NCBI GenBank assembly: GCA_029260855.1
Contig: JAJDCK010000017.1
Span: forward strand, 1-55,899
Direction of reading: 5' to 3'
Length of the DNA: 55,899 nucleotides
Source of the DNA: Candidatus Saccharimonadota bacterium
GTDB taxonomy: Bacteria > Patescibacteriota > Saccharimonadia > Saccharimonadales > OFTM59
Below are positions 300-16,481 of this stretch, piece by piece. The notes beneath the pieces are model-generated. The model searched no databases. It was not told where the DNA came from and saw only the letters and a list, made by a program, of their open reading frames with translations. Positions within the stretch are counted from its first letter, which is position 1, and every line of letters starts with the position of its first letter. The position numbers and the translations under genes are program-made.

Positions 300-1172
300 T
301 TAGAAAGGGCGTTCGCCTTGGTCCAGGCGTTGGCGAATTAACTTTAATTCGTATCTTCTACCAAGCCAGAAAGTCATAATAATAAGTGGTATCAATGCTG
401 CCGCTGGTTGCCAAAGAAGCCTAACTGGTTGTTTACCTCCGTCAATAGCCGCGGCCTCGCCAACACCATCCTGACCTAACGGCCCGTTGCCGACACCGAC
501 TAGCTGTAAATATGCCACGGCGCCGCTGGCATCAACCGCTTTTACGATAATATTATATACGCCTGGTCGTTCGTATATATGCTCTATATCGAATGGTCCA
601 GGCGATGGTCTACTACTAAGATCAACAGGCTTTCCGTCGCCCCAATCTACACTGATAGCATACGGGCCTTGCCCGCCACTTAAAATAACCGGCCAGACTA
701 AGGACTGTCCTGGGTTGGCGCCACGCTTCGCAAAGTTACTGGTTAGCCCTACGCGAGAAACAGATCCGGGCCTTCCATCATTGAAGGTAACCCGTACAAT
801 ATTAGAGTCTGGACCTGGTTGATCCAGTTCATCATAAACACGGGCCACTAGTTCATTCAAACCGCTGAAAAGGTCAATCTGGACAGAAAAACTACCATTG
901 CTACACTGAGTAGAACCAGCAAAAACGTTATTCTTAAAGACTTTTATTAGCAAGTCGTCCTGGCAAATGCCAGCCACTGTAACAGGGAGATCGGCAAAAA
1001 TTTGACCATCGCGTGGTACGGATATGGTGGCTCCTACCGTTGGGGGTGGGCTACTTATACGCCCCTCCACGCCTATTGAGCCGCTATCCTCGGCGGCATA
1101 AATAGTCGAGCCAACTAAAACACAGCTAAGACATATGGCAACCAGTACCATTAATGTTTTAATATGGTGCAT
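300..1172 (-). CDS. Secreted Ig-like/PKD-domain protein with C-terminal membrane anchor
   Basis: Signal peptide, Ig-like segment, PKD motif VDWGDG...HIYERPGVY, C-terminal TM followed by basic tail. Confidence 0.7.
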   Translation of the reverse strand: MHHIKTLMVLVAICLSCVLVGSTIYAAEDSGSIGVEGRISSPPPTVGATISVPRDGQIFADLPVTVAGICQDDLLIKVFKNNVFAGSTQCSNGSFSVQIDLFSGLNELVARVYDELDQPGPDSNIVRVTFNDGRPGSVSRVGLTSNFAKRGANPGQSLVWPVILSGGQGPYAISVDWGDGKPVDLSSRPSPGPFDIEHIYERPGVYNIIVKAVDASGAVAYLQLVGVGNGPLGQDGVGEAAAIDGGKQPVRLLWQPAAALIPLIIMTFWLGRRYELKLIRQRLDQGERPF

Positions 1173-1197
1173 GTTACAACTATATTAACATAAGGGT

Positions 1198-2205
1198 TTA
1201 GTGACGAACTTTTTTGTATTTGTGGCCAGTTGCGTGTTTCTTGACCCAACCAATCATCAAAACTATAAGAACAATAAACAGCGTAACGGCAAGCACAGAC
1301 CACCAAGGTAGGTACCAAAATACGCCACGTATAGTAAGAATTTCGCCACCATTACCGAAGCTAACGTTGGCTGTGGCTACATAGCGACCAGGCGTACCTA
1401 CACCGCTCACTGGATCCTTAAAAATTCGAGTGCTTGATGGTAAGATGTTGCTGCGTGGATCAGTGTCGTTAATCTCGTATTGATGTACTTGCTTACCTAA
1501 AGGGTTGGAAACGGTGACGCTCCCAAAAGGTTTCACGAACCCATTACCCTGGTTGCCTATGCGGATGCCAATTTCTTCTGGTTTAGCGCTGAAAATTGTC
1601 CCTGGCACATTCTTACGATAAAAGAGCACATCCTTTGCCTGGACTTGCTGGCGGATCTCGCCCGGGACCTCGATCATGACTATAGTTCCAACGCTGGCAG
1701 TAAGCGACACCTCGCCTGACTCAAGGGCTTTATTACTGGCCGGGATAGCCGCATAACGAATAACACCGTAGTATGCCCCGGGGGCTGCATCAACAGGTAC
1801 CTGCACGGGGATGTCAAAATTCTGTCTTTCGCCTTTTTTAAGATCCAGGTCCGTTACTCCGACCAGGAACGGCTTGATGCTGGGGGCCCTTCTGGTGTCG
1901 GTTTCAGGTAAAAGCTTGGGCTCGCCTGTTTCGCCGTCGGACTCAAAGTCGTTTACGAACACCTTCGCTACAATATCGCCGTTAGTAACATTTCTGACGC
2001 TCATTTTAATGATGTCTGCTTGACCGCGTTCAATACTGAGTTCTGTGCGCGTTGGTGAGATACTAAGCCCACTACCGGTACTACTATCAGATTGGGCCAG
2101 TAGAGTTACAGTAAGTCCTGTGATCGAGAACAAAGACACAAAAAAAACCAGTAGCAACTGTTTTAACATGCGCAAACCGGAAGTCCTGCCTTTATTGGTT
2201 CCCAT
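1198..2205 (-). CDS. WxL-interacting (DUF916/DUF3324-like) or pilus-chaperone-like membrane-anchored protein
   Basis: Signal peptide; GLSISPTRTEL...VRN; VPVDAAPGAYYG; NQGNGFVKPFG; C-terminal WYLPWW TM and basic tail. Confidence 0.65.
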   Translation of the reverse strand: MGTNKGRTSGLRMLKQLLLVFFVSLFSITGLTVTLLAQSDSSTGSGLSISPTRTELSIERGQADIIKMSVRNVTNGDIVAKVFVNDFESDGETGEPKLLPETDTRRAPSIKPFLVGVTDLDLKKGERQNFDIPVQVPVDAAPGAYYGVIRYAAIPASNKALESGEVSLTASVGTIVMIEVPGEIRQQVQAKDVLFYRKNVPGTIFSAKPEEIGIRIGNQGNGFVKPFGSVTVSNPLGKQVHQYEINDTDPRSNILPSSTRIFKDPVSGVGTPGRYVATANVSFGNGGEILTIRGVFWYLPWWSVLAVTLFIVLIVLMIGWVKKHATGHKYKKVRH

Positions 2206-2246
2206 AATTTATCTTAAGTTTACAACAACAAGTGGCATACATAAAA

Positions 2247-3302
2247 TTAAAATGCTGCTGTCGCTAAAAAAGTAAGTGTAGTGTTGTAAATACCTGGTGC
2301 TTGATTGGCGGATACGTTCACAAGATAGGAAACAGTAAACAGATTAAATTCTGTTGATAAGCTCGAGGAAGATAAACTAGTGCCGGGCTGAAACATAAAG
2401 TTGTTAGATAGGTTGTAGCTTGTGTCTGCGGTGGCCGTGCCGGGCCCTATCACATCCTGACCAACTGCTGGACTGGAGTTCGCCCTTAGGTTAATTCCGA
2501 ACTGACTGGTGCCTGGCAGGCTTGGTGACGGACTGCTTAATTCAGGGATAGTGTTGTTGCCTGAGGTCATAGTAACACCAAGCACGGTGACATTATAACC
2601 ACTTGGGTCGTTACTAGCCCCGGAGTATTGAGACGCCCCTGTGTTAGCTGTGGCCTTGCTAAGCTCGCTCAGGTTAATGTAAAAACCGCTGGCATCTGTA
2701 CAATCCAGTGCGACCGTTATGCCACTACAAAATGTAAGGTGAGGAGGCACAAAGGCATCTACGTTGAGTGGCTGATTAGTCGCGAAGGCAACACTCCCAG
2801 AATCATTGTGAGCACCAGTGCCGTCTGTGCTCCCATATGTCCTGATACGCACAAATGTTGAGCTTGCACCCGACGGGTTAACAATATCTTCAAAAACATA
2901 AGATGAAGGCACGATAAGCCCGGGCAAAGGCGGGCGAGTTATTACAAGCATGTTGGCGGTTGTGCTCCCTGGGTCAATCGCAAAACCAATATTTCCCGTC
3001 TGGTCATTTAGTATAGCCGCCGAAACATCAAGACCAGCCGGAGCACTACAAGGTATTTCATTTAAGGGGCTGTTAGAACAATACTCAAACACTATTGAAC
3101 CCATCACTGCTACGCTGGGCACAGTAATCGCAAAAGCATGTTGTGCTGTGGCGCCGGGAATGGCAGTTGATATAGCAACCGAGCGCGAATCAAGACTAGC
3201 CGCCAGTGCTGGTGCGTGTATGAATAACACAGACGCCACTATAGCAAGCAGTGTCTGTGTTTCGTGCAATGCTAGATTGATTTTATGAAGAAATCCTCGC
3301 AT
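2247..3302 (-). CDS. Secreted WxL/pilin-like beta-sandwich protein
   Basis: Signal peptide, S/T/G-rich, Cys pairs, C-terminus APGIYNTTLTFLATAAF. Confidence 0.6.
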   Translation of the reverse strand: MRGFLHKINLALHETQTLLAIVASVLFIHAPALAASLDSRSVAISTAIPGATAQHAFAITVPSVAVMGSIVFEYCSNSPLNEIPCSAPAGLDVSAAILNDQTGNIGFAIDPGSTTANMLVITRPPLPGLIVPSSYVFEDIVNPSGASSTFVRIRTYGSTDGTGAHNDSGSVAFATNQPLNVDAFVPPHLTFCSGITVALDCTDASGFYINLSELSKATANTGASQYSGASNDPSGYNVTVLGVTMTSGNNTIPELSSPSPSLPGTSQFGINLRANSSPAVGQDVIGPGTATADTSYNLSNNFMFQPGTSLSSSSLSTEFNLFTVSYLVNVSANQAPGIYNTTLTFLATAAF

Positions 3303-3345
3303 TAGTCATACTGTACTTCAGTTAAATGATTATGATTATATATGG

Positions 3346-4641
3346 TTAGAAGGTTGCGGTTGCGATGAAATCCGCCTGAACTGTATACGACCCGGTTGGC
3401 GTGGCCGCGGAGGCGGTAACCGCAAACTTTAAAATTAAAGCTTCGTCATCTACAACTTTTGTTGCAGAACCTGCAGAGCTAGCAATTGTGTCTGCAGCAG
3501 CGGTTGCGTCCCACGCGTATTGACCGGTGGTGGTGCCGGATACCATGTTGCTATCGGAAACATAAGTGTTGTTTGGTGCTGCTCCACCATCATAATCTAC
3601 ATCTCTAACCAAGTTATAGCTGCCTGAACCAAAATTACAGGTGTATGCAGTCGCGCTCACACAGTTAACTCCTGCAACAACCATCCCAAACTTTTCCGTT
3701 CCAGCCGTAAAGGTACCGGGCGTAGTCCCTTGAGCATTAAAACACTGGTCGGTCACCACAACCCCCGAACAAGCCGCGCCAGCCACCTTAAGTGTGCCGC
3801 TAGAGTTGTTGAGTATTGACTTGTAAGAAACCACAACACCATTAAGCGCATTGGTCCTGACCATAGCTATACCGTTAACGTTTGAGCCCCCATTACCTGT
3901 CGCAACCGGTGAGACGTTAGTAAAACCACTTTCTACATTTCCGATGTCTACCGTAGTACCTGTGATAGCACTACAATCGGCACCAGGAGTAGTGGTAGCA
4001 TCGTTAATTGTTGTGGATCCGACGCAGAAGACAAGGTTTTCCTGGACACGCGCATTAACCGTCAATGTCTGCGAGGTGCTTTGGGCAAAAACACCCTCCC
4101 ATACTAGCGTTGTTCCTGTGTCGCTATATATACGCATGCGAGTGTAGTAGCTCTTGTTAGCGACCGCGTTGTTGGTGATATCAGTTGGGCTTAGCGATAT
4201 TGTGGCCTCGTCTTTGCTAGCACCAGCGTCTGCAGTTGTTTTGTCAATCAAAATCTGATTGTCTGTGCCGCCGTTATCGCCTGATTGACGCGAAGCTGTG
4301 TTGCCGCCAGAGGTAAAGTTAGTAAGCGTAGCGGTCAACGAAACGGCAATGGTCGGGGTGTTGACGATAGTACAGGTGCCTAGTGGGGTATCACAGAATT
4401 CTATTTCAATGTGGTCTATGTTGGCTACATCTGCGGTCGTATCAAAAATCCAGGTGAGGTCCGTTGTTTGACTGGGGCGCGCGCTTGTGGATTGTAGCTC
4501 ACGTTCTGTAAGCGTTGGTGCAGCATGTGCCACGCCAGGCATAAATACAGGTGAGAAAACTGACAGCATTAATATGGTTGCGTATATTAGGGCTTCAAGT
4601 CTCTTCGCCCGAGCCTTCTGGCGAAACCAGTACTTACTCAT
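3346..4641 (-). CDS. Secreted WxL/pilin-like beta-sandwich protein (paralog of 2247..3302)
   Basis: Signal peptide ending AHA; IEFCDTPLGTC matches FEYCSNSP..C of the neighbour; C-terminus TPTGSYTVQADFIATATF. Confidence 0.6.
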   Translation of the reverse strand: MSKYWFRQKARAKRLEALIYATILMLSVFSPVFMPGVAHAAPTLTERELQSTSARPSQTTDLTWIFDTTADVANIDHIEIEFCDTPLGTCTIVNTPTIAVSLTATLTNFTSGGNTASRQSGDNGGTDNQILIDKTTADAGASKDEATISLSPTDITNNAVANKSYYTRMRIYSDTGTTLVWEGVFAQSTSQTLTVNARVQENLVFCVGSTTINDATTTPGADCSAITGTTVDIGNVESGFTNVSPVATGNGGSNVNGIAMVRTNALNGVVVSYKSILNNSSGTLKVAGAACSGVVVTDQCFNAQGTTPGTFTAGTEKFGMVVAGVNCVSATAYTCNFGSGSYNLVRDVDYDGGAAPNNTYVSDSNMVSGTTTGQYAWDATAAADTIASSAGSATKVVDDEALILKFAVTASAATPTGSYTVQADFIATATF

Positions 4642-4796
4642 TTTTGTTTCCTTTTGTTGATTTTAGTTATTTCAATACTACTTTTAACACAGCCCTGGTT
4701 ATAGCGCAAGCATTTTCACTGTATTTGTCCACAGTATTTACCTTTAAAAAGATAGCCGATGCTTAAAGCCAGCCACACACCAAACACCCCAGGAGG

Positions 4797-5486
4797 TTAG
4801 CGTGTTTGAAATGACTTTATGATCCCCCCAAGCTCTCGCCCGTCGCCACCTGCCGTTAAATCCTTATACACTATTAGATATCGAGCATGGGTGTTATCGG
4901 GTCGCCACAGCTCTATATACGGACTACCGCCTATTTGACTGATAACAACATCAAAGTTACTCCCGTCGCCCCTGCAAGTAAACGTGGTGTCGTTGAGTGT
5001 TACTGTTCGTATCTGCTTCTTTTCTTCATCCGGCAGCGCAGACCTACAGTGCTGGCTGATCCCGCCCACCACCTCAAAACCACCATCAGGTTTTGGCCTG
5101 ACGGGTTGAACATAAGATACATCTATTGATTGGATGGAGGGGTTTACGTAGATATTCAACTCGTGCTCAATCAAGGGGCCTCTAAACGACCGGTAAACGA
5201 ACTTGTTTACTGTTGTTTCTTTCGCGTCAGCAAGCCAAGTCTTGTTTGCCTGAAATTGAAAATATGCAGTTCTAAAAATCTCAACTGAGGGTGACTGTAT
5301 GCTGGTCTGTACCTCCGATATCGGCGCTAGGTTTTCTTGTCTCGTAAATACGCTCGTTGTCAACAACAAGACCACCAGCAAAACAGGCGTGCCGGCAACT
5401 AGCCCAACCATAAACCACTTGCCATGTGCAATCAATTTATGTCGGCGTTTGCTCGGGTGATCTATACGATAACTCTCTTCAAACAC
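4797..5486 (-). CDS. Hypothetical single-pass membrane protein
   Basis: 229 aa ORF, N-terminal TM, extracytoplasmic domain with a Cys pair. Confidence 0.6.
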   Translation of the reverse strand: MFEESYRIDHPSKRRHKLIAHGKWFMVGLVAGTPVLLVVLLLTTSVFTRQENLAPISEVQTSIQSPSVEIFRTAYFQFQANKTWLADAKETTVNKFVYRSFRGPLIEHELNIYVNPSIQSIDVSYVQPVRPKPDGGFEVVGGISQHCRSALPDEEKKQIRTVTLNDTTFTCRGDGSNFDVVISQIGGSPYIELWRPDNTHARYLIVYKDLTAGGDGRELGGIIKSFQTR

Positions 5487-5558
5487 GATAGTTATATCCT
5501 GATTTAGCTTAGCATATATAAATCTGACCGGGCACTAGCGACGAGAGACCTAGCCGGC

Positions 5559-6329
5559 TCAATAAGTTACAACCGCAACCAGGTCGTGCTCCATCCGATA
5601 TGTGCCACCTGCAGTAATGTTGCTGATGTTTGCGATATACGAGATCGTATAGTCGGTACGGCCAACAGCTTGCCTACCAATGGTTGCCTGTGAACGCGCA
5701 ATAGTATCGCCCACACCGTAGGCGTATTCATTCGGGTCATCATAGTCACGCTCACCCCCCGGTCCATCTCCAAACGCCTGCCCATCAGCATAGCTATCAT
5801 CAGGCACATTAACGGGATCGGCGCCGAAGGTCGCAGGAGACGTATTGGCAACCAGATTGATGCCAAACTCCTCTGTTCCTGGGCTGGACGCGCCAGTAGT
5901 AAGTTTGGGGCTCAATACCGCCCCTCCCTCACTTGTAAGCGACTGGCTCATCGTCTTAACAAAGTAGCTACTTGATAAATACGTCCGGATCCAAAACACT
6001 CCGACTCCAGTTCCTGTTGACGAGCTACTTAATGTCCCCAGATCGACCACCGTACTATTTACAAACATTTCCAAGTAGGGTGCGTTGGGAGTATAGAACC
6101 CCGCCTCAACGTCATAATTAGTACTAGAAGAAAGGCCAACACCCAAGCTACCCAGACCAGCCTGGACGTTATAACTACCAGAGTTCAGGTCCACCTCGCC
6201 TCCACTACCAAAATACGCTTCTTCAACGCGATAGCTATTTGAAGAAGATTGAGCCCCAACTCTAATCGGAAGCAGTGCGCCGATTACCAATAACACGATC
6301 AGTGTTCTTACGTGTCTCTTTTGTCTCAT
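5559..6329 (-). CDS. Secreted WxL/pilin-like protein
   Basis: Signal peptide; PGTEEFGINL shared with PGTSQFGINL of 2247..3302; C-terminus AGGTYRMEHDLVAVVTY. Confidence 0.6.
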   Translation of the reverse strand: MRQKRHVRTLIVLLVIGALLPIRVGAQSSSNSYRVEEAYFGSGGEVDLNSGSYNVQAGLGSLGVGLSSSTNYDVEAGFYTPNAPYLEMFVNSTVVDLGTLSSSSTGTGVGVFWIRTYLSSSYFVKTMSQSLTSEGGAVLSPKLTTGASSPGTEEFGINLVANTSPATFGADPVNVPDDSYADGQAFGDGPGGERDYDDPNEYAYGVGDTIARSQATIGRQAVGRTDYTISYIANISNITAGGTYRMEHDLVAVVTY

Positions 6330-6429: not shown

Positions 6430-7413
6430 ATGGACACATCACCTGAAGACAAAGAAATAAACTCCCTCGAGGACAGTAGTGTTGGCTCAAGCCAATCGAG
6501 TAGTGACGGCCCAACAAATAAGCCCAAGCAAGACACAGAACAACGCAACAGGCCCAAGAACGAAAAAATTAACCAACGAATTCAAAATCTAATAACAAGG
6601 GTTAATATATACCTCTTATTGTTTGTCCTTGTGGTGATTATAGCGGCAAGTATTGTGTTTATCAGTTTACAGCAGAATAAAAAGGAGCTGAGGGAGGCTG
6701 ATATTGCGGCAACGCAACTAACCGCAGAAGAACTAAAAGAGCTGGGGATTAACGATACGAAGGTTGGTGACCCCAAGCAAACACTTACAATTGAGTCTAA
6801 TGCTATTTTCACTGGTCAAGCGCTGGTCCGTGGCAACCTTGATGTGGCCGGGGAAATCAAAGTAGGCTCTGCTTTGAATTTGCCAGGCATAAACGTTTCA
6901 GGTGCAAGTACGCTAGGCCAGGTTGCAGCCAACGATCTTACGGTTGCAAACAGCGCGTCAATACAAGGCCAATTGAGCGTCCAACGCACGCTATCCGTAG
7001 CTGGTAGCGCGTCTTTCGGTGGCAGTATTACCGCACCACAACTAACAATCACGATTCTGCAAATTAATGGCGATTTGCAATTAAATCGACATATAGATGC
7101 TGGGGGGCAGACACCAAGCCGGACAAACGGCAGCGCTCTTGGCGCGGGCGGCACCAGTTCTATCAGCGGCACAGACACGGCAGGCACATTGAGCGTTAAC
7201 ACAGGCGGCGGTCCACCGGCTGGTTGCTTTGCAACCATTACCTTTGCACAAGCATTCAGAGATACTCCCCACGTAGCAGTCACCCCAGTAGGGTCCGCGG
7301 GCGGCACCCTTAATTATTATGTAAACCGGTCTAGTGCAAGCTTTAGCATCTGCACCGCGACACCTCCTCCCGCAGGCGTCTCGTTCGCTTTTGACTACGT
7401 TATTATTGACTAG
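6430..7413 (+). CDS. Membrane-anchored fibre/adhesin-like protein (beta-repeat shaft plus tail-fibre-like tip)
   Basis: Acidic N-tail, one TM, repeated G-x-L-x-V-x-G units, C-terminal ITFAQAFRDTPHVAVTP...FSI motif resembling H-lectin/gp53-like tip domains. Confidence 0.55.
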   Translation: MDTSPEDKEINSLEDSSVGSSQSSSDGPTNKPKQDTEQRNRPKNEKINQRIQNLITRVNIYLLLFVLVVIIAASIVFISLQQNKKELREADIAATQLTAEELKELGINDTKVGDPKQTLTIESNAIFTGQALVRGNLDVAGEIKVGSALNLPGINVSGASTLGQVAANDLTVANSASIQGQLSVQRTLSVAGSASFGGSITAPQLTITILQINGDLQLNRHIDAGGQTPSRTNGSALGAGGTSSISGTDTAGTLSVNTGGGPPAGCFATITFAQAFRDTPHVAVTPVGSAGGTLNYYVNRSSASFSICTATPPPAGVSFAFDYVIID

Positions 7414-7581: not shown

Positions 7582-7889
7582 TCACACGTCTAGGAATACG
7601 ATGACTTTGTCTTTTTTGACGTGCATGATACCGCGGTTAATTGGAATTTTTTCATCATTTTTGCCGGTGCGAACTATAATATCGCAGGCACTTAGCAGTG
7701 TCATGAAGTTATGATGGTGTGGCAAAATATCAAATGCTCCCGTTTCGTTTACCGCCGATATACTCTGTGCATCACCGTCGTAGTAGGTTTTGAACGGTGC
7801 GTATATTTTGACATGCATACGCTTGCCGTCATAAGCAGTCGCACCTGGTTCAATAGTACTCTTTGTCTTTTGGATTAACCCTTCTGGCA

Positions 7890-7890
<1 letters not shown>
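7582..7890 (-). CDS. atpC: F1 ATPase epsilon-like subunit, N-terminal domain only
   Basis: VKIYAP...GAFDILPHHHNFMTLL motif, follows beta; no C-terminal helical hairpin. Confidence 0.85.
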
Positions 7891-10056
<2,166 letters not shown>

Positions 10057-10060
<4 letters not shown>

Positions 10061-11568
10061 TTTTCAGCCTCAACGCTTTCTTTATGGTCTTCGTCTTTGG
10101 CAGTTACGGTCGGTGTGTTTTGCCTAGGCTGCTTTCTGTCGCCCATTAATTCCATCGTGCAACTTTTCTCAAGATCATCACGGACCTTTTCGTACTGGTC
10201 GTCATTTTTTATCTTTTGCGCAGCTTCGCGAACCCCATTCTTGAGTTTAGGCACATCAAGTACGCCTTGTTTTTCTATATTTAAAACAATGTCGAGCATT
10301 AGTTGTTGCTCTATCAAAGAATACGTGTCAGAAGGATTTTGTGTCAGCAACTCGAGGATCCGTCTGCCTGTTTCCAGAGTATGTCGGGACTCGATGGCTA
10401 GTTCTGATCCAAAATGTGAAAACTCTTCGGCCTGACGATAATCAGCCAGCAGCTTAAGAGCCTGAGCAGCTATGGATTTTTGTCTTTTAGTATGACCTGA
10501 ACCACCGACGCGAGTGACCGAAAGGCCCATACTAAGAGCTGGGCGGACACCATTACGAAAAGTGTCCATATCCAAAATCCATTGTCCGTCAGTTATTGAC
10601 ATTATATTGGTCGGCAAATATGCAGTTATGTCGCCCCCGGCAGCATTAACCAGAGGTATGCTCGTAAGGTGTTTGCCATTTTTCTCCAGACGACCAGCCC
10701 TTTCAAGCAAGGATGAATGGGCATAAAACATATCGCCCGGATACGAGTCGCGACCTGGGCTAACCCCCGATAGTAGTGCAACTTCACGGTAGGCGTGAGC
10801 ATGACTGGTCAAATCATCATAAATAATTATAGTGTCCTGGTTTTGTTCTTGCCACAGATATTCAGCCATAGCGCATGCCACATAAGGCGCCAGATAACTC
10901 ACTATAAGTGATTCAAACATAGTAGAGACGACCACTATGGCTTTTTCTAGCCCGCCGTTTTCCTCTAAGCGACTCAGCAGCATGTCCACATCGCTTCGCC
11001 GTTTCGCGATCAACGCATAAACAACCACCTGCTCTGTGTTCTTCTGGTTAATCGTCAGCTGGGTTACGAGCGTGCTTTTACCTGATTTGCTGTCCCCCAA
11101 CAAAGCCATACGCTGCCCTCGTACAATGGGGAACAGTGCATCTATAGCGATGACCCCGCTTTCTAGCTGGGTATCGAGCAGTTTTCGCTGATAGAGTGGT
11201 GGCGCCGTATTAAAGACCGGCCATGTCGCGTCCGCAGCTATGGGGCCTTTGCCGTCAAGAGGCTCACCCGTTACCGACACGACTCGTCCTATGAAGTCCT
11301 TACCAACCTTGCACACCAGCTCTTGATGCTGCACTACAGCTACTAGACCCACCGATACCGGTACCGTGCCTAGGTGTAAAACAACCACGTGATCGTTCAG
11401 TACCTGATGAACAAAGCCCTTGCTGCCATCTTCAAACATAACCAGCGCATGTATGGCGCACGGCTGTAGCCCCTGCACCCTGATCAGGAACTTGTCAACC
11501 GCTATAACTTCTCCTACCGGGTGCCCCGAGTCAACCAGACGACTAAAGTGCTGATTGGTCGCGCTCAC
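10057..11568 (-). CDS. atpA: F1 ATPase alpha subunit, divergent
   Basis: [67 protein letters not shown]. Confidence 0.95.
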
Positions 11569-12227
11569 TGCTTGGCCCTCCTTTGTGCTGGCGACTCACC
11601 AGGAGTTAGAGGAACGACCGGCTGCGAAGATAGAAGCTTAGCGCGTCGCGGGTCAACATAAGCTAATTTCGGAGCTGACTCGACAGGCACCGTAGGAGCT
11701 ATAGGTGAATGATCTTTTAAGGTGTGAAGCTTATTTATGAGCGTGTTTTTTTCTTTCACAAATTTCTGTCGTAAGCTGAAATCAAAATGCCGATTGGTCG
11801 TCCTCAAGATACAGCCCGCGCCAATTGTTGGCTGAAGACCAACCTGCAATAAAACAGTAGGACCGATATTAGTTCTCAGCCAGGTGACAAGCTTCTGTAA
11901 AAATAGCGGCGAAGGGTCCGAGCTAAAACTCATGTGCATTAACGGAGCGCTATTTCTAATTTTTTCAAGAAACTCACGCATGGCTCTTCTGTCAGCTTCG
12001 AGCAGAGGCTCAAGTTTATTCTGCTGGATCATTTCGTCAAAAAGCCTGCTCGTCTTGGGGAGTTTTGGGTTGTCATTTGGTTCGCGCAGGACAGCCGCCT
12101 CCAAAAAATTATCCAAAGCATCAAGCTCCCGGAGTAGCCGGGCAACATCCATTCGCCCAACTATGGCTATGGGGAGATGTAGATCGGGCTGTACATGTTC
12201 GTGCGTATCAACCATGTCATGTATCAC
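11565..12227 (-). CDS. atpH: F1 delta/OSCP-like subunit
   Basis: C-terminal [23 protein letters not shown] matches the delta motif (vDp.liGG..i.....iD.Sl); position before alpha. Confidence 0.75.
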
Positions 12228-12271
12228 CCCTGTTAAGTGTGTACGTAAGACGGTATAGTCCAGGCATCTTG

Positions 12272-12901
12272 CTACACCCCGCCTGACATATCCGCAATAA
12301 TCGCATCTTTGTTAGCCTCAAGGCTACTCAAAATGAATTCAAGTTGATCATTCAGGTCAATTTGGTCCCCGATCGCTGCTAGCACATAGTGATTGATCAC
12401 ATCGGCCATATTGTCCTCAAAACGTTTAACCAGTAATGTTAAGCTTTTTTCTGCTTCAAGCTTTATCTGCTGATTCATTACTTGGCGCTGCTGCTCAATA
12501 GCTTCTTGGGTCTTAGTTATAGAGTCAATCGCGAGCTGTTTAGCGTCGGTTATTGATTCTTCATACTTAGCAAATTCTTCCTGAAGTGTGCGAGTAATTT
12601 CTGCTTTCATGTATTCATTAAGCTGGGAGGTGGTCAGCCTGAGATCTTGCTGCAAAAACATCGCGTTTTCGCCAATAATTTTCTCAAAATGCAGTCGCCC
12701 ACGGTTTCTAAGCTCTTCACGAAACTCGTTATTGAAGATGTGTTCAACATCTTCTTCGGCGCGCTCGGTCATTACGTCGTGAGGGTTTTTGTGTTTACCT
12801 TTTTTACGCGCTCCACTGTTTATACGGAAGCCGACCCACAAGAAAGCTAGCGTTGCCGATGCTAGACTTCCTAGTACTAATGCGAGTGCCCAACCATTCA
12901 C
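12272..12901 (-). CDS. atpF: Fo b-like peripheral stalk subunit
   Basis: N-terminal TM followed by long charged coiled coil; position before delta. Confidence 0.65.
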   Translation of the reverse strand: MNGWALALVLGSLASATLAFLWVGFRINSGARKKGKHKNPHDVMTERAEEDVEHIFNNEFREELRNRGRLHFEKIIGENAMFLQQDLRLTTSQLNEYMKAEITRTLQEEFAKYEESITDAKQLAIDSITKTQEAIEQQRQVMNQQIKLEAEKSLTLLVKRFEDNMADVINHYVLAAIGDQIDLNDQLEFILSSLEANKDAIIADMSGGV

Positions 12902-12924
12902 TTAAATGCCCACCTTGTAAATAT

Positions 12925-13758
12925 TTATAGCTTTAGTAGTAAATATACTCCAAAAATGCCACTTACAAAAATAGTTAAGCCCACAATCACTACTTGCAGC
13001 ATCCCTTGAATTATTGATTTCTTGCTAAGCGGGTTGCGCCCGACAGAAGTAATCCCCGCTTTTACGCCTCCAAAAAGCAAGCTGGCCGCAATCGCAGTAC
13101 TGACAAAAAATATAACAAGACCCATATAGATACGGGGAGGTTCAACCGGCTTCCCGGCTATATCTTCCGCAGCACGACCTAAGAAGTCCGGCAAACTAGC
13201 CGCTGATTTTTGTGTCGGGTTACGCGCTACTTGTATATCCACCCGCACGCGGCCCACATTAATCGTTCTATCCCCTACCTTTGTTGAGCTAACCACGCCA
13301 TTATGACCATCAAACAGCTCTAGAGCCCTGCCAGCTACGTAAGGCTGTTGGTCATCTACTCGCATACCAACTCCATCCAATGAAGAGGTTGTTATGTAAT
13401 CACCGGGGTTGATTATCCCGTTTTGGTCACTCACCAACACGTCATACTTGCCTACGGTAGCCACGAACACTTTTTGGTCTTCGGCCGATAGTGTTACCGG
13501 AGCGTCATTAGCGTCTACAACGACACCGTGTAATTTATCAGCATGCGTTGAACTGACAGCTTCTACCGTGCTTGTATCGGAATCCTTAATCCCGACCAGC
13601 ATGCCTCGCTGTAGGGCGCCCTCGGCGCTATTGTATCCTTGCGTTACCGCTTGCGCCGATAGCAAGCCTCTTGAACTCAGCACTATCAATAAAATCAGCA
13701 TGCAAAGCGCCAGGACGCGGTAAAGCGGAAAGAGGCGTAGAATTTTTTCTTTTATCAT
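12925..13758 (-). CDS. Extracytoplasmic-domain protein with C-terminal subunit-c-like hairpin lacking the acidic residue
   Basis: Signal peptide/TM, ~170 aa beta domain (NGIINPGDYITTSSLDGVGM), two C-terminal TM helices joined by ITSVGRNPLSKKSI; occupies the atpE position. Confidence 0.6.
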   Translation of the reverse strand: MIKEKILRLFPLYRVLALCMLILLIVLSSRGLLSAQAVTQGYNSAEGALQRGMLVGIKDSDTSTVEAVSSTHADKLHGVVVDANDAPVTLSAEDQKVFVATVGKYDVLVSDQNGIINPGDYITTSSLDGVGMRVDDQQPYVAGRALELFDGHNGVVSSTKVGDRTINVGRVRVDIQVARNPTQKSAASLPDFLGRAAEDIAGKPVEPPRIYMGLVIFFVSTAIAASLLFGGVKAGITSVGRNPLSKKSIIQGMLQVVIVGLTIFVSGIFGVYLLLKL

Positions 13759-13810
13759 TTTATAATTTCAGTTAAATCATATCCATTATACCTGATACCA
13801 CCTCAGGTAA

Positions 13811-14953
13811 TCAAATAATCGCCAGGATACTTCTAATAGTTTTGATGATAGCTGGTTTGGTCGTAGAGCGACCGATAGTAAAACGCAGCGAGGCTTGAGC
13901 CTTATTATCATTGAGTCCAATGGCTTTTAATACGTAGGAGGGCTCATCACTACTAGCACTGCAAGCTGAGCCTACCGCGCATTGGATGCCTGCCTCATCA
14001 AGTAACATCATCAATCGCTCATTGTCCTGGCCAGCAAAGGTTACGTGTATGTTGTTTGGTAGTCGCGACTTAAGCGATCCGTTAATGATAGAGTCCGGAA
14101 ATTCTTGAGACAATAAGGCGATGAACTCGTCTCTCAGCTCTTGTACGCGACGCGATTCGTCTGAGCGCATACTTTGAGCTTTATCAAGCGCGGCACTTAA
14201 CCCGATGATATTAGCCACATTTTCAGTACCACTGCGTTTATCGTTTTCCTGTCCACCGCCCACTATCAAAGGCGTTAAGGAAATTCCTGACTTAACAAAC
14301 AAAGCTCCGCTCTGTTTTGGGCCGTATATTTTCCCTCCGTTAAGTGTCATCATATCAACGCCAAGCTTGGACACATGCAGGTCCAGGTAGTTGCCAGCCT
14401 GTGCGGCGTCCGTATGAAAATATAAAGGCAGCTTTATGCCCCGTTTTTGGCGGTCTTTTTTAATTTCTTCCAGGGCTTTCGCGATTCGGCGCAAGGGCTC
14501 TATTGTACCGATTTCATTATTTGCATACATAATGCTCACTAACACAGTTTTATCGTTAACAGCTGTTTCTAGCGACGCCAAGTCAATTACTCCGTCTGGC
14601 TGAACCTTAGCGACACGGTTGTCGTAGCGCTTTGACGGTTTTAAAACAGATTCGTGTTCAATGGTGCTAACTACAATATTGGCATCAGGATAGGTACCCA
14701 TGACTCCCATAATGGCCAGGTTGTTGGCTTCGGTTCCGCCGGCAGTAAATATAATTTCACCTGAACGTGCGCCAAGCCAATGAGCTACACGTTCTCTTGC
14801 GCTTTGAATATCTTTTGTAATTATTTTTGCCGCTAAATAAGTAGCTGACGGGTTATGAAATTTTTCGGTAAAGTACGGTTCCATGCAAGTCAGAACATCT
14901 CGGTCCAACGGCGTGGCTGCAGCATAATCAAGGTATATAGATTTCTTGGTCAT
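13811..14953 (-). CDS. iscS: Cysteine desulfurase (IscS/NifS family)
   Basis: YLDYAAATP, HTDAAQ, GGKIYGPK, RSGTENV, GSACSA. Confidence 0.95.
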   Translation of the reverse strand: MTKKSIYLDYAAATPLDRDVLTCMEPYFTEKFHNPSATYLAAKIITKDIQSARERVAHWLGARSGEIIFTAGGTEANNLAIMGVMGTYPDANIVVSTIEHESVLKPSKRYDNRVAKVQPDGVIDLASLETAVNDKTVLVSIMYANNEIGTIEPLRRIAKALEEIKKDRQKRGIKLPLYFHTDAAQAGNYLDLHVSKLGVDMMTLNGGKIYGPKQSGALFVKSGISLTPLIVGGGQENDKRSGTENVANIIGLSAALDKAQSMRSDESRRVQELRDEFIALLSQEFPDSIINGSLKSRLPNNIHVTFAGQDNERLMMLLDEAGIQCAVGSACSASSDEPSYVLKAIGLNDNKAQASLRFTIGRSTTKPAIIKTIRSILAII

Positions 14954-15663: not shown

Positions 15664-16481
15664 GATAGTTGAAATAATTCCTTTGCATTCGTGGTCGTGA
15701 CACTAGCCAGTTTACTCAAGGACTCTCCTCGGAGTTGGCATAAAAATTCTGCAGTCGCTCGCACATGTTTTGTCTGGCAGATTGTACCACGGTAAGGAGC
15801 TGGTGTCAAGAACGGAGCATCGGTTTCAAGAAGTAATTTATCAATCGGCACAGACTTTGCCGCTTCTAGATGCCTCTTGTCTTTAGTAAAAGTCATAATG
15901 CCGTTCAGGCCGACGTACAGGCCACGAGCTATGATTTGTTCTAGATCCTCTAAAACGCTACTAAAACTGTGTATAACGCCTCTAGTCCCTTTATATTCAT
16001 CAAAAATAGACCAAAAATCAGCAAACGCGTCCCGGACATGAAATATTAAGGGCAGATCGTGTTCCTGAGCTAACTCCAAATGAAAACGTAAAAGCTTTTG
16101 CTGGTCCGCTGTGGAGGAATGGTCGTAATGGTAATCAAGTCCGCATTCGCCAATCGCCACTACTTTGCGATTATCTAGCAAATTGCGAATTTTTTGCAAT
16201 TTGTCCGGAGCGTTTACGTAGTCTTTAGCTTCGTGAGGATGGACCCCAACGCTTGCCCACAAACCTTGTCTAGCCTGCACAAACCTCACAGCCACAACAC
16301 TGTCCTCAAGCGTAGTTCCGACGCAGACTATGTGGCCAACACCCCGGTCTGCGGCCTGCCGAATCATCGTATCGGCGTCCACGCCCGAATCTTTTTTCCA
16401 GATTCCACGAATTAAATTAGCTTCCGGCAGCCCAGCCGTGGCCTCCTGTATATGGCAATGAGTATCAAACAGCTCTAGCAT
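15660..16481 (-). CDS. tatD: TatD-family deoxyribonuclease (start corrected to MLELFDTHCH)
   Basis: DTHCH, GVHPH, IGECGLDY, HSFS, LLETDAPFL; directly after metG. Confidence 0.93.
   Translation of the reverse strand: MLELFDTHCHIQEATAGLPEANLIRGIWKKDSGVDADTMIRQAADRGVGHIVCVGTTLEDSVVAVRFVQARQGLWASVGVHPHEAKDYVNAPDKLQKIRNLLDNRKVVAIGECGLDYHYDHSSTADQQKLLRFHLELAQEHDLPLIFHVRDAFADFWSIFDEYKGTRGVIHSFSSVLEDLEQIIARGLYVGLNGIMTFTKDKRHLEAAKSVPIDKLLLETDAPFLTPAPYRGTICQTKHVRATAEFLCQLRGESLSKLASVTTTNAKELFQLS

Follow-up and report, generated by a model that had tools for sequence, protein, structure and literature searches.

What can serve as the membrane part of an F1-like ATPase whose genes come without those for subunits a and c? 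The question is raised by the window analysed here, the whole 55,899-nucleotide contig JAJDCK010000017.1 of Candidatus Saccharimonadota bacterium (assembly GCA_029260855.1), in which a cluster of F1-like ATPase genes is headed by a gene for a 277-residue (aa) membrane protein, here named X. The X gene coincides exactly with the open reading frame (ORF) 12925..13758 on the minus strand, which starts with ATG. We consider it moderately probable that X forms a rotor ring derived from ATP synthase subunit c, unable to translocate ions and bearing an external crown, and that it is the membrane part of a second, F1-like ATPase driven by ATP hydrolysis. In our best reading, X stands in for subunits a and c of this machine. 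Its layout is as follows.

12925..13758, minus strand: X gene, encoding a signal peptide, a cement-like ectodomain and a c-like hairpin (ORF, AlphaFold2 model, homologues).
13651..13758, minus strand: residues 1-36, N-terminal hydrophobic helix ending in LSAQA, likely a signal peptide, alternatively an uncleaved anchor (hydropathy, helix at 12-28).
13222..13650, minus strand: residues 37-179, beta ectodomain with a phage cement/decoration fold (Pfam matches of family members, Foldseek, VIA-align).
13141..13221, minus strand: residues 180-206, linker with a short helix at 191-201, leading from the ectodomain to the membrane (AlphaFold2; predicted local distance difference test, pLDDT, down to 79 in 181-190).
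12928..13140, minus strand: residues 207-277, two-helix transmembrane hairpin, c-subunit-like and without the carboxylate (hydropathy, AlphaFold2, profile and fold comparison).
13030..13041, minus strand: codons of G240, R241, N242 and P243, the invariant loop, placed on the cytoplasmic side (sequence, 73 of 73 homologues).

Three hydrophobic segments were detected by hydropathy, at about residues 9-37, 209-234 and 247-277. The AlphaFold2 model, built from a 73-sequence alignment (mean pLDDT 94.0, predicted template modelling score 0.76), contains a helix at 12-28, beta strands within 39-179, a helix at 191-201 and the hairpin helices at 207-241 and 243-276, the latter two with pLDDT values of 93-98. 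Judging from a reading of the sequence rather than from a prediction tool, cleavage of the signal peptide is likely. The simplest topology for X is that of subunit c, in which the N and C ends lie outside and the loop inside: the loop carries many K/R residues and the ectodomain comes after a signal-like helix, which would place this domain, together with the two ends of the hairpin, on the outside.

Homologues of X are abundant, with 1503 sequences at E ≤ 0.001 among 5018 candidates, and 1591 clusters of 50%-identity representatives matching at E ≤ 0.001, of which 708 reach E ≤ 1e-10 and 136 reach E ≤ 1e-30. The best 120 of the 1503 are 264-301 aa long and none of them has a precomputed Pfam domain; nearly all of those that bear a name are 'hypothetical protein', and two are labelled Saccharimonadales or Saccharibacteria. 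One homologue cluster (P0057) is named '6,7-dimethyl-8-ribityllumazine synthase', which looks like a mis-transferred annotation. The window protein itself gave nothing against Pfam except an insignificant Dr_adhesin match (E 0.52). The family alignment contains 73 full-length members, 29-54% identical to X, with seven invariant columns (M1, G78, G129 and the four of G-R-N-P) and a nearly invariant L244.

X heads a same-strand cluster in which successive genes are separated by gaps or overlaps of a few bases. Downstream of X the cluster comprises the following genes.

12272..12901, minus strand: b-like, 209 aa, one N-terminal transmembrane helix (position and architecture).
11565..12227, minus strand: delta/OSCP-like, 220-aa ORF (window protein against OSCP, E 0.074; OSCP matches in 15 of 19 orthologues, best E 3.7e-10).
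10057..11568, minus strand: alpha-like, 503 aa (PF00006 E 4.6e-66, PF00306 E 7.7e-11).
9194..10060, minus strand: gamma-like, 288 aa (PF00231 E 2.1e-30).
7890..9197, minus strand: beta-like, 435 aa, with the GGAGVGKT P-loop present (PF00006 E 5.9e-63; best PDB match F1 beta, E 4e-103).
7582..7890, minus strand: epsilon-like, 102 aa, beta-sandwich domain alone (PF02823 E 2.9e-14, residues 25-100).

The b-like assignment rests on operon position and architecture, since Pfam ATP-synt_B matched two of 17 orthologues (best E 0.012). The true start of the delta-like ORF may be further in, its orthologues being 154-229 aa long. The C-terminal helical part of epsilon, which regulates ordinary F1, appears to be missing from the 102-aa epsilon-like subunit. 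An alternative genetic code was ruled out, all seven ORFs being open under table 11. No gene for a or for an ordinary c was found in this cluster. The genome (790 kb, 18 contigs, 97.7% complete) contains four alpha/beta matches, one a match and one c match, the last two both in a complete canonical F1Fo operon on contig C6. X occupies the place that atpB and atpE have in the canonical operon.

The polar loop of c-rings contacts gamma and epsilon. The first-pass annotation of this locus had described the end of X as a helix-GRNP-helix hairpin resembling that of subunit c, with VGLT at the place of Asp61/Glu and no acidic residue in either helix, and the family as a whole bears this description out. 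The GRNP loop is invariant in 73 of 73 homologues, and the same four residues form the loop of the genome's own c subunit (78 aa, contig C6, LGRNPEA) and of 24 of the 26 other Patescibacteria c subunits aligned, the other two having ARNP. In the own c subunit the Glu lies 19 residues past the Arg; the residue of X at this offset is G260 of VGLT, and G260/L261 align with the Glu of c. No D or E was read in the hairpin helices of the window protein, and across the 73 homologues these residues occur in at most one sequence at each position from 256 to 275, and in four at position 224. Among the 4439 ORFs of at least 40 aa in the genome, GRNP is present in six: c, the three members of the X family, and two short ORFs (50 and 57 aa) that are taken to be spurious.

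Profile searches against the same 4439 ORFs were made in both directions. With the X hairpin profile the three family members came first and the true c subunit next (E 0.0031, with the whole hairpin aligned), and the c profile retrieved c, one 54-aa ORF taken to be spurious, and then the three X-family members (E 0.33-1.5). With hhalign, the hairpin columns of X matched an alignment of 27 c subunits with a probability of 84.5%, E 6.9e-6 and a score of 31.9, and 100 column-shuffled controls gave a best E of 0.018 and a top score of 15.9. The best fold matches of X 203-277 in VIA-align were c subunits, headed by 2x2v_A (Z 10.5, root mean square deviation 1.3 Å, 69 of 69 residues) and followed by 6z1r_K (Z 10.3), 4v1f_A (Z 10.2) and 6tmh_H (Z 9.7, 1.2 Å, 71 of 71). 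An ESM Atlas search with the hairpin gave no usable match.

Intermediates between X and subunit c were found in a Pfam ATP-synt_C scan of 121 Patescibacteria genomes, which gave weak matches within very long open frames; five of these were examined (loci L094, G009:C1; L095, G005:C8; L098, G079:C10; L096, G028:C10; and L097, G055:C22). The five ORFs, of 629, 629, 1663, 2571 and 2589 aa, come from other Patescibacteria and end in a hairpin with the motif IGRNP(F/L/Y)A. Their hairpins match the c profile over nearly the whole length (E 2e-13 to 2e-12) and also match the X hairpin profile (E 4e-7 to 1e-5). By hhalign they align with c over 72 columns (probability 99.0%, E 2.4e-18) and with the X hairpin at a probability of 96.1% (E 3e-9). 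The Glu is missing from all five as well, as read from the alignment. The long proteins are built like X: a hydrophobic segment opens the chain, the ectodomain follows, and two helices close it. In the 1663-aa ORF hydropathy picked up a single hydrophobic segment at the C end and none at the N end. On the same strand, downstream of the 2571-aa ORF, lies an alpha-gamma-beta-epsilon cluster. Homology of the X hairpin to subunit c is thus suggested moderately by direct comparison and strongly through these intermediates. Because the long proteins share its hairpin and layout, X can be regarded as the short end of a series of surface proteins with a c-derived hairpin anchor.

With the roles of a and c vacant, the rotor-contact loop kept, the ion site gone and the stalk genes kept, the position left for X would be that of the membrane rotor subunit. 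Since the carboxylate is lost and no a subunit is encoded alongside, the complex cannot be driven by ions or pump them.

Two further arrangements were seen around the long proteins. At L094 five ORFs, of 521, 302, 399, 173 and 188 aa, separate the giant from the alpha, gamma, beta and epsilon genes downstream, and the 399-aa one has four hydrophobic segments. At L095 and L098 a second giant ORF, of about 2410 aa, comes after the c-hairpin ORF.

Residues 37-179 of the X model have the fold of phage cement/decoration proteins, as expected from the first-pass annotation, in which the N-terminal domain had been likened by eye to beta modules of phage tail fibres or decoration proteins and a structural comparison with the PDB proposed. 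Three Pfam models of phage cement/decoration proteins (PF23982, PF09956 and PF22758) were tested on the 73 family members: XM1_gp53_minor_capsid matched 19 of them (best E 8.5e-6), Phage_cement_2 seven and Phage_cement five. Foldseek returned 29 PDB matches to the ectodomain at E ≤ 0.001. Among the 21 matches listed, with E up to 0.023, all were phage capsid decoration/cement proteins or phi29 gp12/gp8.5 (BB1, Pam3, Sf11, T1, FCWL1, HFTV1, TW1, XM1, the phi29 gp12 C-terminal fragment and the gp8.5 head-fibre base; E 2e-5 to 2e-2, probability 0.94-1.00). VIA-align against 48,161 chains ranked the phi29 gp12 C-fragment first (Z 13.2, 112 residues), followed by HFTV1 (Z 11.9) and Sf11 (Z 10.8), with overall values of Z 9.1-13.2 over 109-125 residues and a range in the X model from 37 to 176/179. 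X thus has a fold in common with the cement/decoration proteins of Pam3, E217, XM1, TW1, BB1, Sf11, T1 and HFTV1 and with the phi29 gp12 C-fragment and gp8.5. In contrast to these proteins, X belongs to a cell and not to a phage: it is a membrane protein whose gene lies in an ATPase operon, and its sequence identity to their structures is 9-22%. The neighbours of the X gene are ATPase, cysteine desulfurase-like and tRNA synthetase genes; a phage or prophage origin of the locus was ruled out, since these are housekeeping genes.

The association of X with F1-like genes extends well beyond the window. In 14 of 20 loci from other genomes, belonging to several families, the genes for alpha, gamma, beta and epsilon adjoin that of an X homologue; the gene order is that of the window in 10 of these 14, L077 included, and at L076 X is placed after epsilon. 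Three more distant loci also carry an F1-like cluster. The other six of the 20 loci lack ATPase genes. In four of them an ORF of 1267-2055 aa comes after X, a fifth has a 1760-aa ORF upstream, and the sixth shows neither arrangement. In a tree of 24 X proteins good support was obtained for three clades, the window's own, which is ATPase-adjacent, and two that are giant-adjacent, and a single taxonomic family includes both a genome whose sole X is ATPase-adjacent and genomes whose sole X is giant-adjacent.

Among 401 sampled Patescibacteria genomes, the X-family profile matches 151 and gamma (PF00231) matches 230. Many of the former matches are to the ectodomain alone, the cement-like domain also being found inside ORFs of about 1000-6900 aa. 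Co-occurrence was tallied by hand among the matches listed, 94 further X-profile matches lying outside the tally. Within it, an F1-like gamma is present in 51 of the 51 genomes with a full-length X: 31 have at least two gamma matches, and 20 have one, at E 2.5e-18 to 2.1e-32, which is the range of the window's gamma-like protein, canonical gammas reaching about 1e-54 or lower. Of the 401 genomes, about 78 belong to one or other of these gamma classes. The 51 genomes span more than 20 families, and kin among them are not independent; the tallies include one unpublished genome (G154), on which no claim depends. In one family (f46), the sole alpha/beta pair adjoins X in all five genomes (94-99% complete), and neither ATP-synt_C nor ATP-synt_A has a match in any of the five. 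Co-occurrence with F1-like genes, which the first-pass annotation had named as a check of its reading, is seen here, X heading a cluster that runs from b to epsilon and includes neither a nor c.

Two of the loci were noted for their gene layout. At L077 (G169:C64) a 2.4-kb insertion separates gamma (ending at 13298) from beta (starting at 15740), the junction being otherwise conserved. At L085 (G385:C2:6500-25500) one F1-like cluster is surrounded by three ORFs of X layout, of 255, 265 and 268 aa; the first two are X homologues, and the third was judged by hydropathy alone.

Two more 277-aa members of the X family are encoded in the same genome, on contigs C14 and C7. Their identity is ~30% to X and 79% between the two. 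Directly downstream of each is a giant ORF (of 1534 and 1629 aa) that has a membrane helix at its N-terminus and contains a stretch with a match to the ectodomain profile (E 5e-7 and 1.4e-6). The regions C14:7471-24861 and C7:1-18093 (L067 and L068) are parallel blocks, each with adk, map, ftsA, ftsZ, nrdR, ileS, the X paralogue and the giant ORF, and may represent two strains in one bin or a large duplication. Since the blocks are parallel, two strains are a possible explanation, and there would then be one such paralogue per organism. In another genome (L083, G063:C1), the 2.9 kb downstream of the X homologue (9800-12723) contains no ORF longer than 111 aa and no N; sister genomes have a giant ORF at that place.

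From homology and gene context we infer how such a machine could work. The X hairpin would descend from subunit c, with the cytoplasmic GRNP loop retained and the carboxylate lost. Copies of X would pack through their hairpins into a c-ring-like oligomer, on whose GRNP loops the foot that the gamma-like and the epsilon-like subunit form would stand. ATP hydrolysis in alpha3beta3, held by a stalk of the b-like and delta-like proteins, would turn or strain the ring, and the cement-fold ectodomains would, as a crown on the membrane's outer face, carry the movement to the cell surface. The target there would probably be giant surface proteins with the same domain; the links of X to these giants suggest where work is delivered, and this is the weakest step of the reading. 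A complex prediction with the gamma-like protein, the epsilon-like protein and four hairpins (203-277), made with alignments, scored 0.00 and speaks neither for nor against binding. A ring with a crown that transmits torque outside the cell had been proposed in the first-pass annotation; the c-like hairpin, the phage-type domain and the F1-like neighbours that it called for are present, and ring assembly, contact with gamma and epsilon, rotation and the surface target are the part of the proposal that stays conditional.

Several observations weigh against a c-derived rotor ring. The GxGxGxG motif of c helix 1 is absent from X, as had been recognised at first sight, and a mix of small residues (A/S/T/G) takes its place across the homologues, at positions 213, 220, 224-225, 230-231, 235 and 238. 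The Pfam ATP-synt_C model (PF00137) misses X in the window protein at E ≤ 1, in the 73 members at E ≤ 10 and in a scan of the genome, which returned the canonical c only; the suggested comparison of residues ~205-277 with this family thus succeeded by hhalign and failed with the Pfam model itself. In a search of PDB sequences with the X-family profile a c subunit ranks first, yet at E 0.48. Since the direct hhalign match is confident over ~26 columns round the loop, convergence on a gamma/epsilon-binding loop would be possible for X itself. Fold alone decides nothing on kinship with c, because unrelated helical hairpins reach Z 9.4 in the same search, near the c subunits. No subunit able to hold the stalk against the ring, the role of a, was found in the operon. 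In addition, the X paralogues adjoin giant ORFs and not ATPase genes, and five genomes, behind five of the six ATPase-free loci, have a second b-delta-alpha-gamma-beta-epsilon cluster elsewhere with no X adjoining. These X-free clusters follow an ORF of 381-392 aa, in the place of the window's 380-aa cysteine desulfurase-like gene. Given such paralogues and X-free clusters, the link between X and the ATPase is not always physical.

Other roles for X can be weighed on the same evidence. X could be part of the F1-like complex and yet be static, an anchor or scaffold (as a monomer, a dimer or a small bundle) by which the ATPase is tied to surface proteins, with ATP hydrolysis transmitted through a push-pull conformational change. 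We regard this as unlikely, although the lack of an encoded a-like stator partner, the loss of the helix-1 glycine motif needed for tight packing of the inner helices of a c-ring, and a direct similarity to c that is confident round the loop only are all in its favour, and in PMC12994834 a protein of the same layout, MMCAP2_0577, is considered a possible peripheral stalk. In X's own operon, however, the stalk role is filled, because a b-like and a delta/OSCP-like protein are already encoded, and the vacant roles are those of a and c. The invariant loop corresponds to the contact of the c-ring with the rotor and is no feature of a stalk, and the hairpins of the related giants match the c profile over 72 columns.

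The adjacency to giant ORFs would also fit an oligomer of X acting as a pore or export platform, in which the F1-like ATPase powers secretion or surface assembly of giant proteins without torque, like the F1-related ATPases of type III secretion. X paralogues lie directly upstream of giants in four of the six ATPase-free loci (1267-2055 aa) and in the own genome (1534 and 1629 aa), part of the ectodomain recurs in these latter giants (E 5e-7 and 1.4e-6), and type III secretion ATPases are the next PDB matches of the beta-like protein after F1 and G1 beta (E about 3e-37). Such a platform seems quite improbable to us, since the cluster has kept gamma, epsilon, delta and b, a complete rotary set for which secretion ATPases have no need, and the beta-like protein is far nearer to F1 beta (E 4e-103). 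Known c-rings are lipid-plugged and are not known to conduct protein. Very little speaks for X as an ordinary surface protein with a generic hairpin anchor, to which the ATPase neighbourhood and the GRNP loop would be unrelated. This explanation was in effect tested here and is disfavoured by the synteny in 14 of 20 loci from several families, by the co-occurrence in 51 of 51 genomes among the matches listed, by the transitive profile homology to c, and by the invariance of GRNP, which within the genome is confined to c and the X family if the two presumably spurious ORFs (50 and 57 aa) are set aside; on its side are the missing Pfam ATP-synt_C match and the paralogues away from ATPase genes. 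The c-derived rotor ring remains the reading that we prefer.

X differs from subunit c (PF00137) in lacking the helix-2 carboxylate, the helix-1 GxGxGxG and an a partner, in going undetected by PF00137, and in adding about 170 residues of ectodomain and an N-end signal peptide. Shared with c are the ~70-residue two-helix hairpin with ends outside and an R-N-P loop inside, and the c position in an atp-like operon. N-ATPases are encoded by a second, laterally transferred F-type operon (10.1101/2023.04.11.536006). They resemble the window's cluster in being a second F-type gene cluster beside the native ATPase, but they keep a and c and translocate ions, whereas the window's cluster has neither a nor an ion-binding c; without a or c, its identity as an N-ATPase was ruled out.

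The closest known system is the mycoplasma 'F1-like X0' ATPase. Its Type 2 is the G1-ATPase of the Mycoplasma mobile gliding motor and its Type 3 is linked to the MIB-MIP antibody-cleavage system (PMC3369863; PMC12994834), and in the published models ATP hydrolysis inside the cell acts on cell-surface proteins (PMC3369863; PMC12994834). As in the window, extra alpha-, beta-, gamma- and epsilon-like genes without a and c occur beside a canonical F1Fo operon in a tiny host-dependent bacterium. In layout X also matches a protein of the mycoplasma clusters, in which a signal peptide and an ectodomain precede two transmembrane helices at the C-terminus (PMC12994834), although X has 277 aa and the mycoplasma protein is of about 85-127 kDa. 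The mycoplasma clusters further encode a 12-helix membrane protein and a small cytoplasmic protein and have no b or delta (PMC12994834; PMC3369863). In contrast, the window's cluster keeps b-like and delta-like genes and the canonical atp gene order, with no ORF for a 12-helix or small cytoplasmic protein within 7582-13758. The beta-like protein is nearer to ordinary F1 beta (E 4e-103 against the PDB) than to M. mobile G1 beta (9io5_A, E 1.4e-84), so that no special kinship with the mycoplasma G1 is shown. In the accessible portions of PMC3369863 and PMC12994834 the mycoplasma hairpin is not called c-like.

A broader proposal, which we put forward tentatively and hold to be doubtful at present, is that Patescibacteria possess a rotary surface motor, in which an F1-like ATPase spins a c-derived rotor that has no ion path and bears extracellular modules, so that structures outside the cell are turned. 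The modules would range from the 170-residue cement-like domain to a 2500-residue giant adhesin-like arm, and turning or cranking could help the cell to attach to its host, to move or to remodel the zone of contact. Coupling of rotor and arm would then fall to the X paralogues beside giants with the same domain, and the mycoplasma X0 protein with two C-terminal helices could be the same invention.

No description of an F1-like ATPase in Saccharibacteria or Patescibacteria was found in the literature searched, subscription journals and supplements not being covered. A survey of ATP synthases (10.1101/2023.04.11.536006) and a study of Saccharibacteria genetics (PMC10633639) mention, in their accessible portions, ordinary F-type or A/V-type complexes only. 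Rotary ATPases are known to couple ATP to ion flow, and the sole exception proposed has been that of the F1-like ATPases of mycoplasmas, in which the nature of the membrane part and the way force is transferred are unsettled. Here the membrane part can be read as a c hairpin minus the ion site plus an outward domain, with stalk genes kept and without a, which gives a concrete and testable picture of an F1 motor re-used for mechanical work across the membrane. A large share of the Patescibacteria sampled have the system. These bacteria live attached to other cells, and their giant surface proteins still lack an explanation. Some lineages have no other F-type ATPase, so that surveys scoring 'ATP synthase present' from alpha/beta genes would misread their energy metabolism.

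A promoter-like site precedes the X gene.

13785..13814, minus strand: promoter-like TTGATT-18-TATAAT, 10/12, just upstream of the X start (consensus match alone).

The region contains 15 such sites, against 10.7 ± 3.0 in shuffles, indicating no enrichment. On the other side of the ATPase cluster, the minus strand of window positions 300-6329 encodes ORFs of 290, 335, 351, 431 and 256 aa, each with an N-terminal hydrophobic segment, and a 229-aa ORF sits between those of 431 and 256 aa. Pfam gave no matches for the five ORFs that were scanned, the 290-aa ORF being outside the scan. Three of the hydrophobic-start ORFs end alike (ATAAF, ATATF and AVVTY), and the block may contain surface-structure or pilus-like genes. 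Between this block and epsilon, on the plus strand (6430-7413), a 327-aa ORF with a hydrophobic stretch near residue 60 gave a weak bactofilin-like (beta-helix) match at E 4e-4, under the Pfam cut-off.

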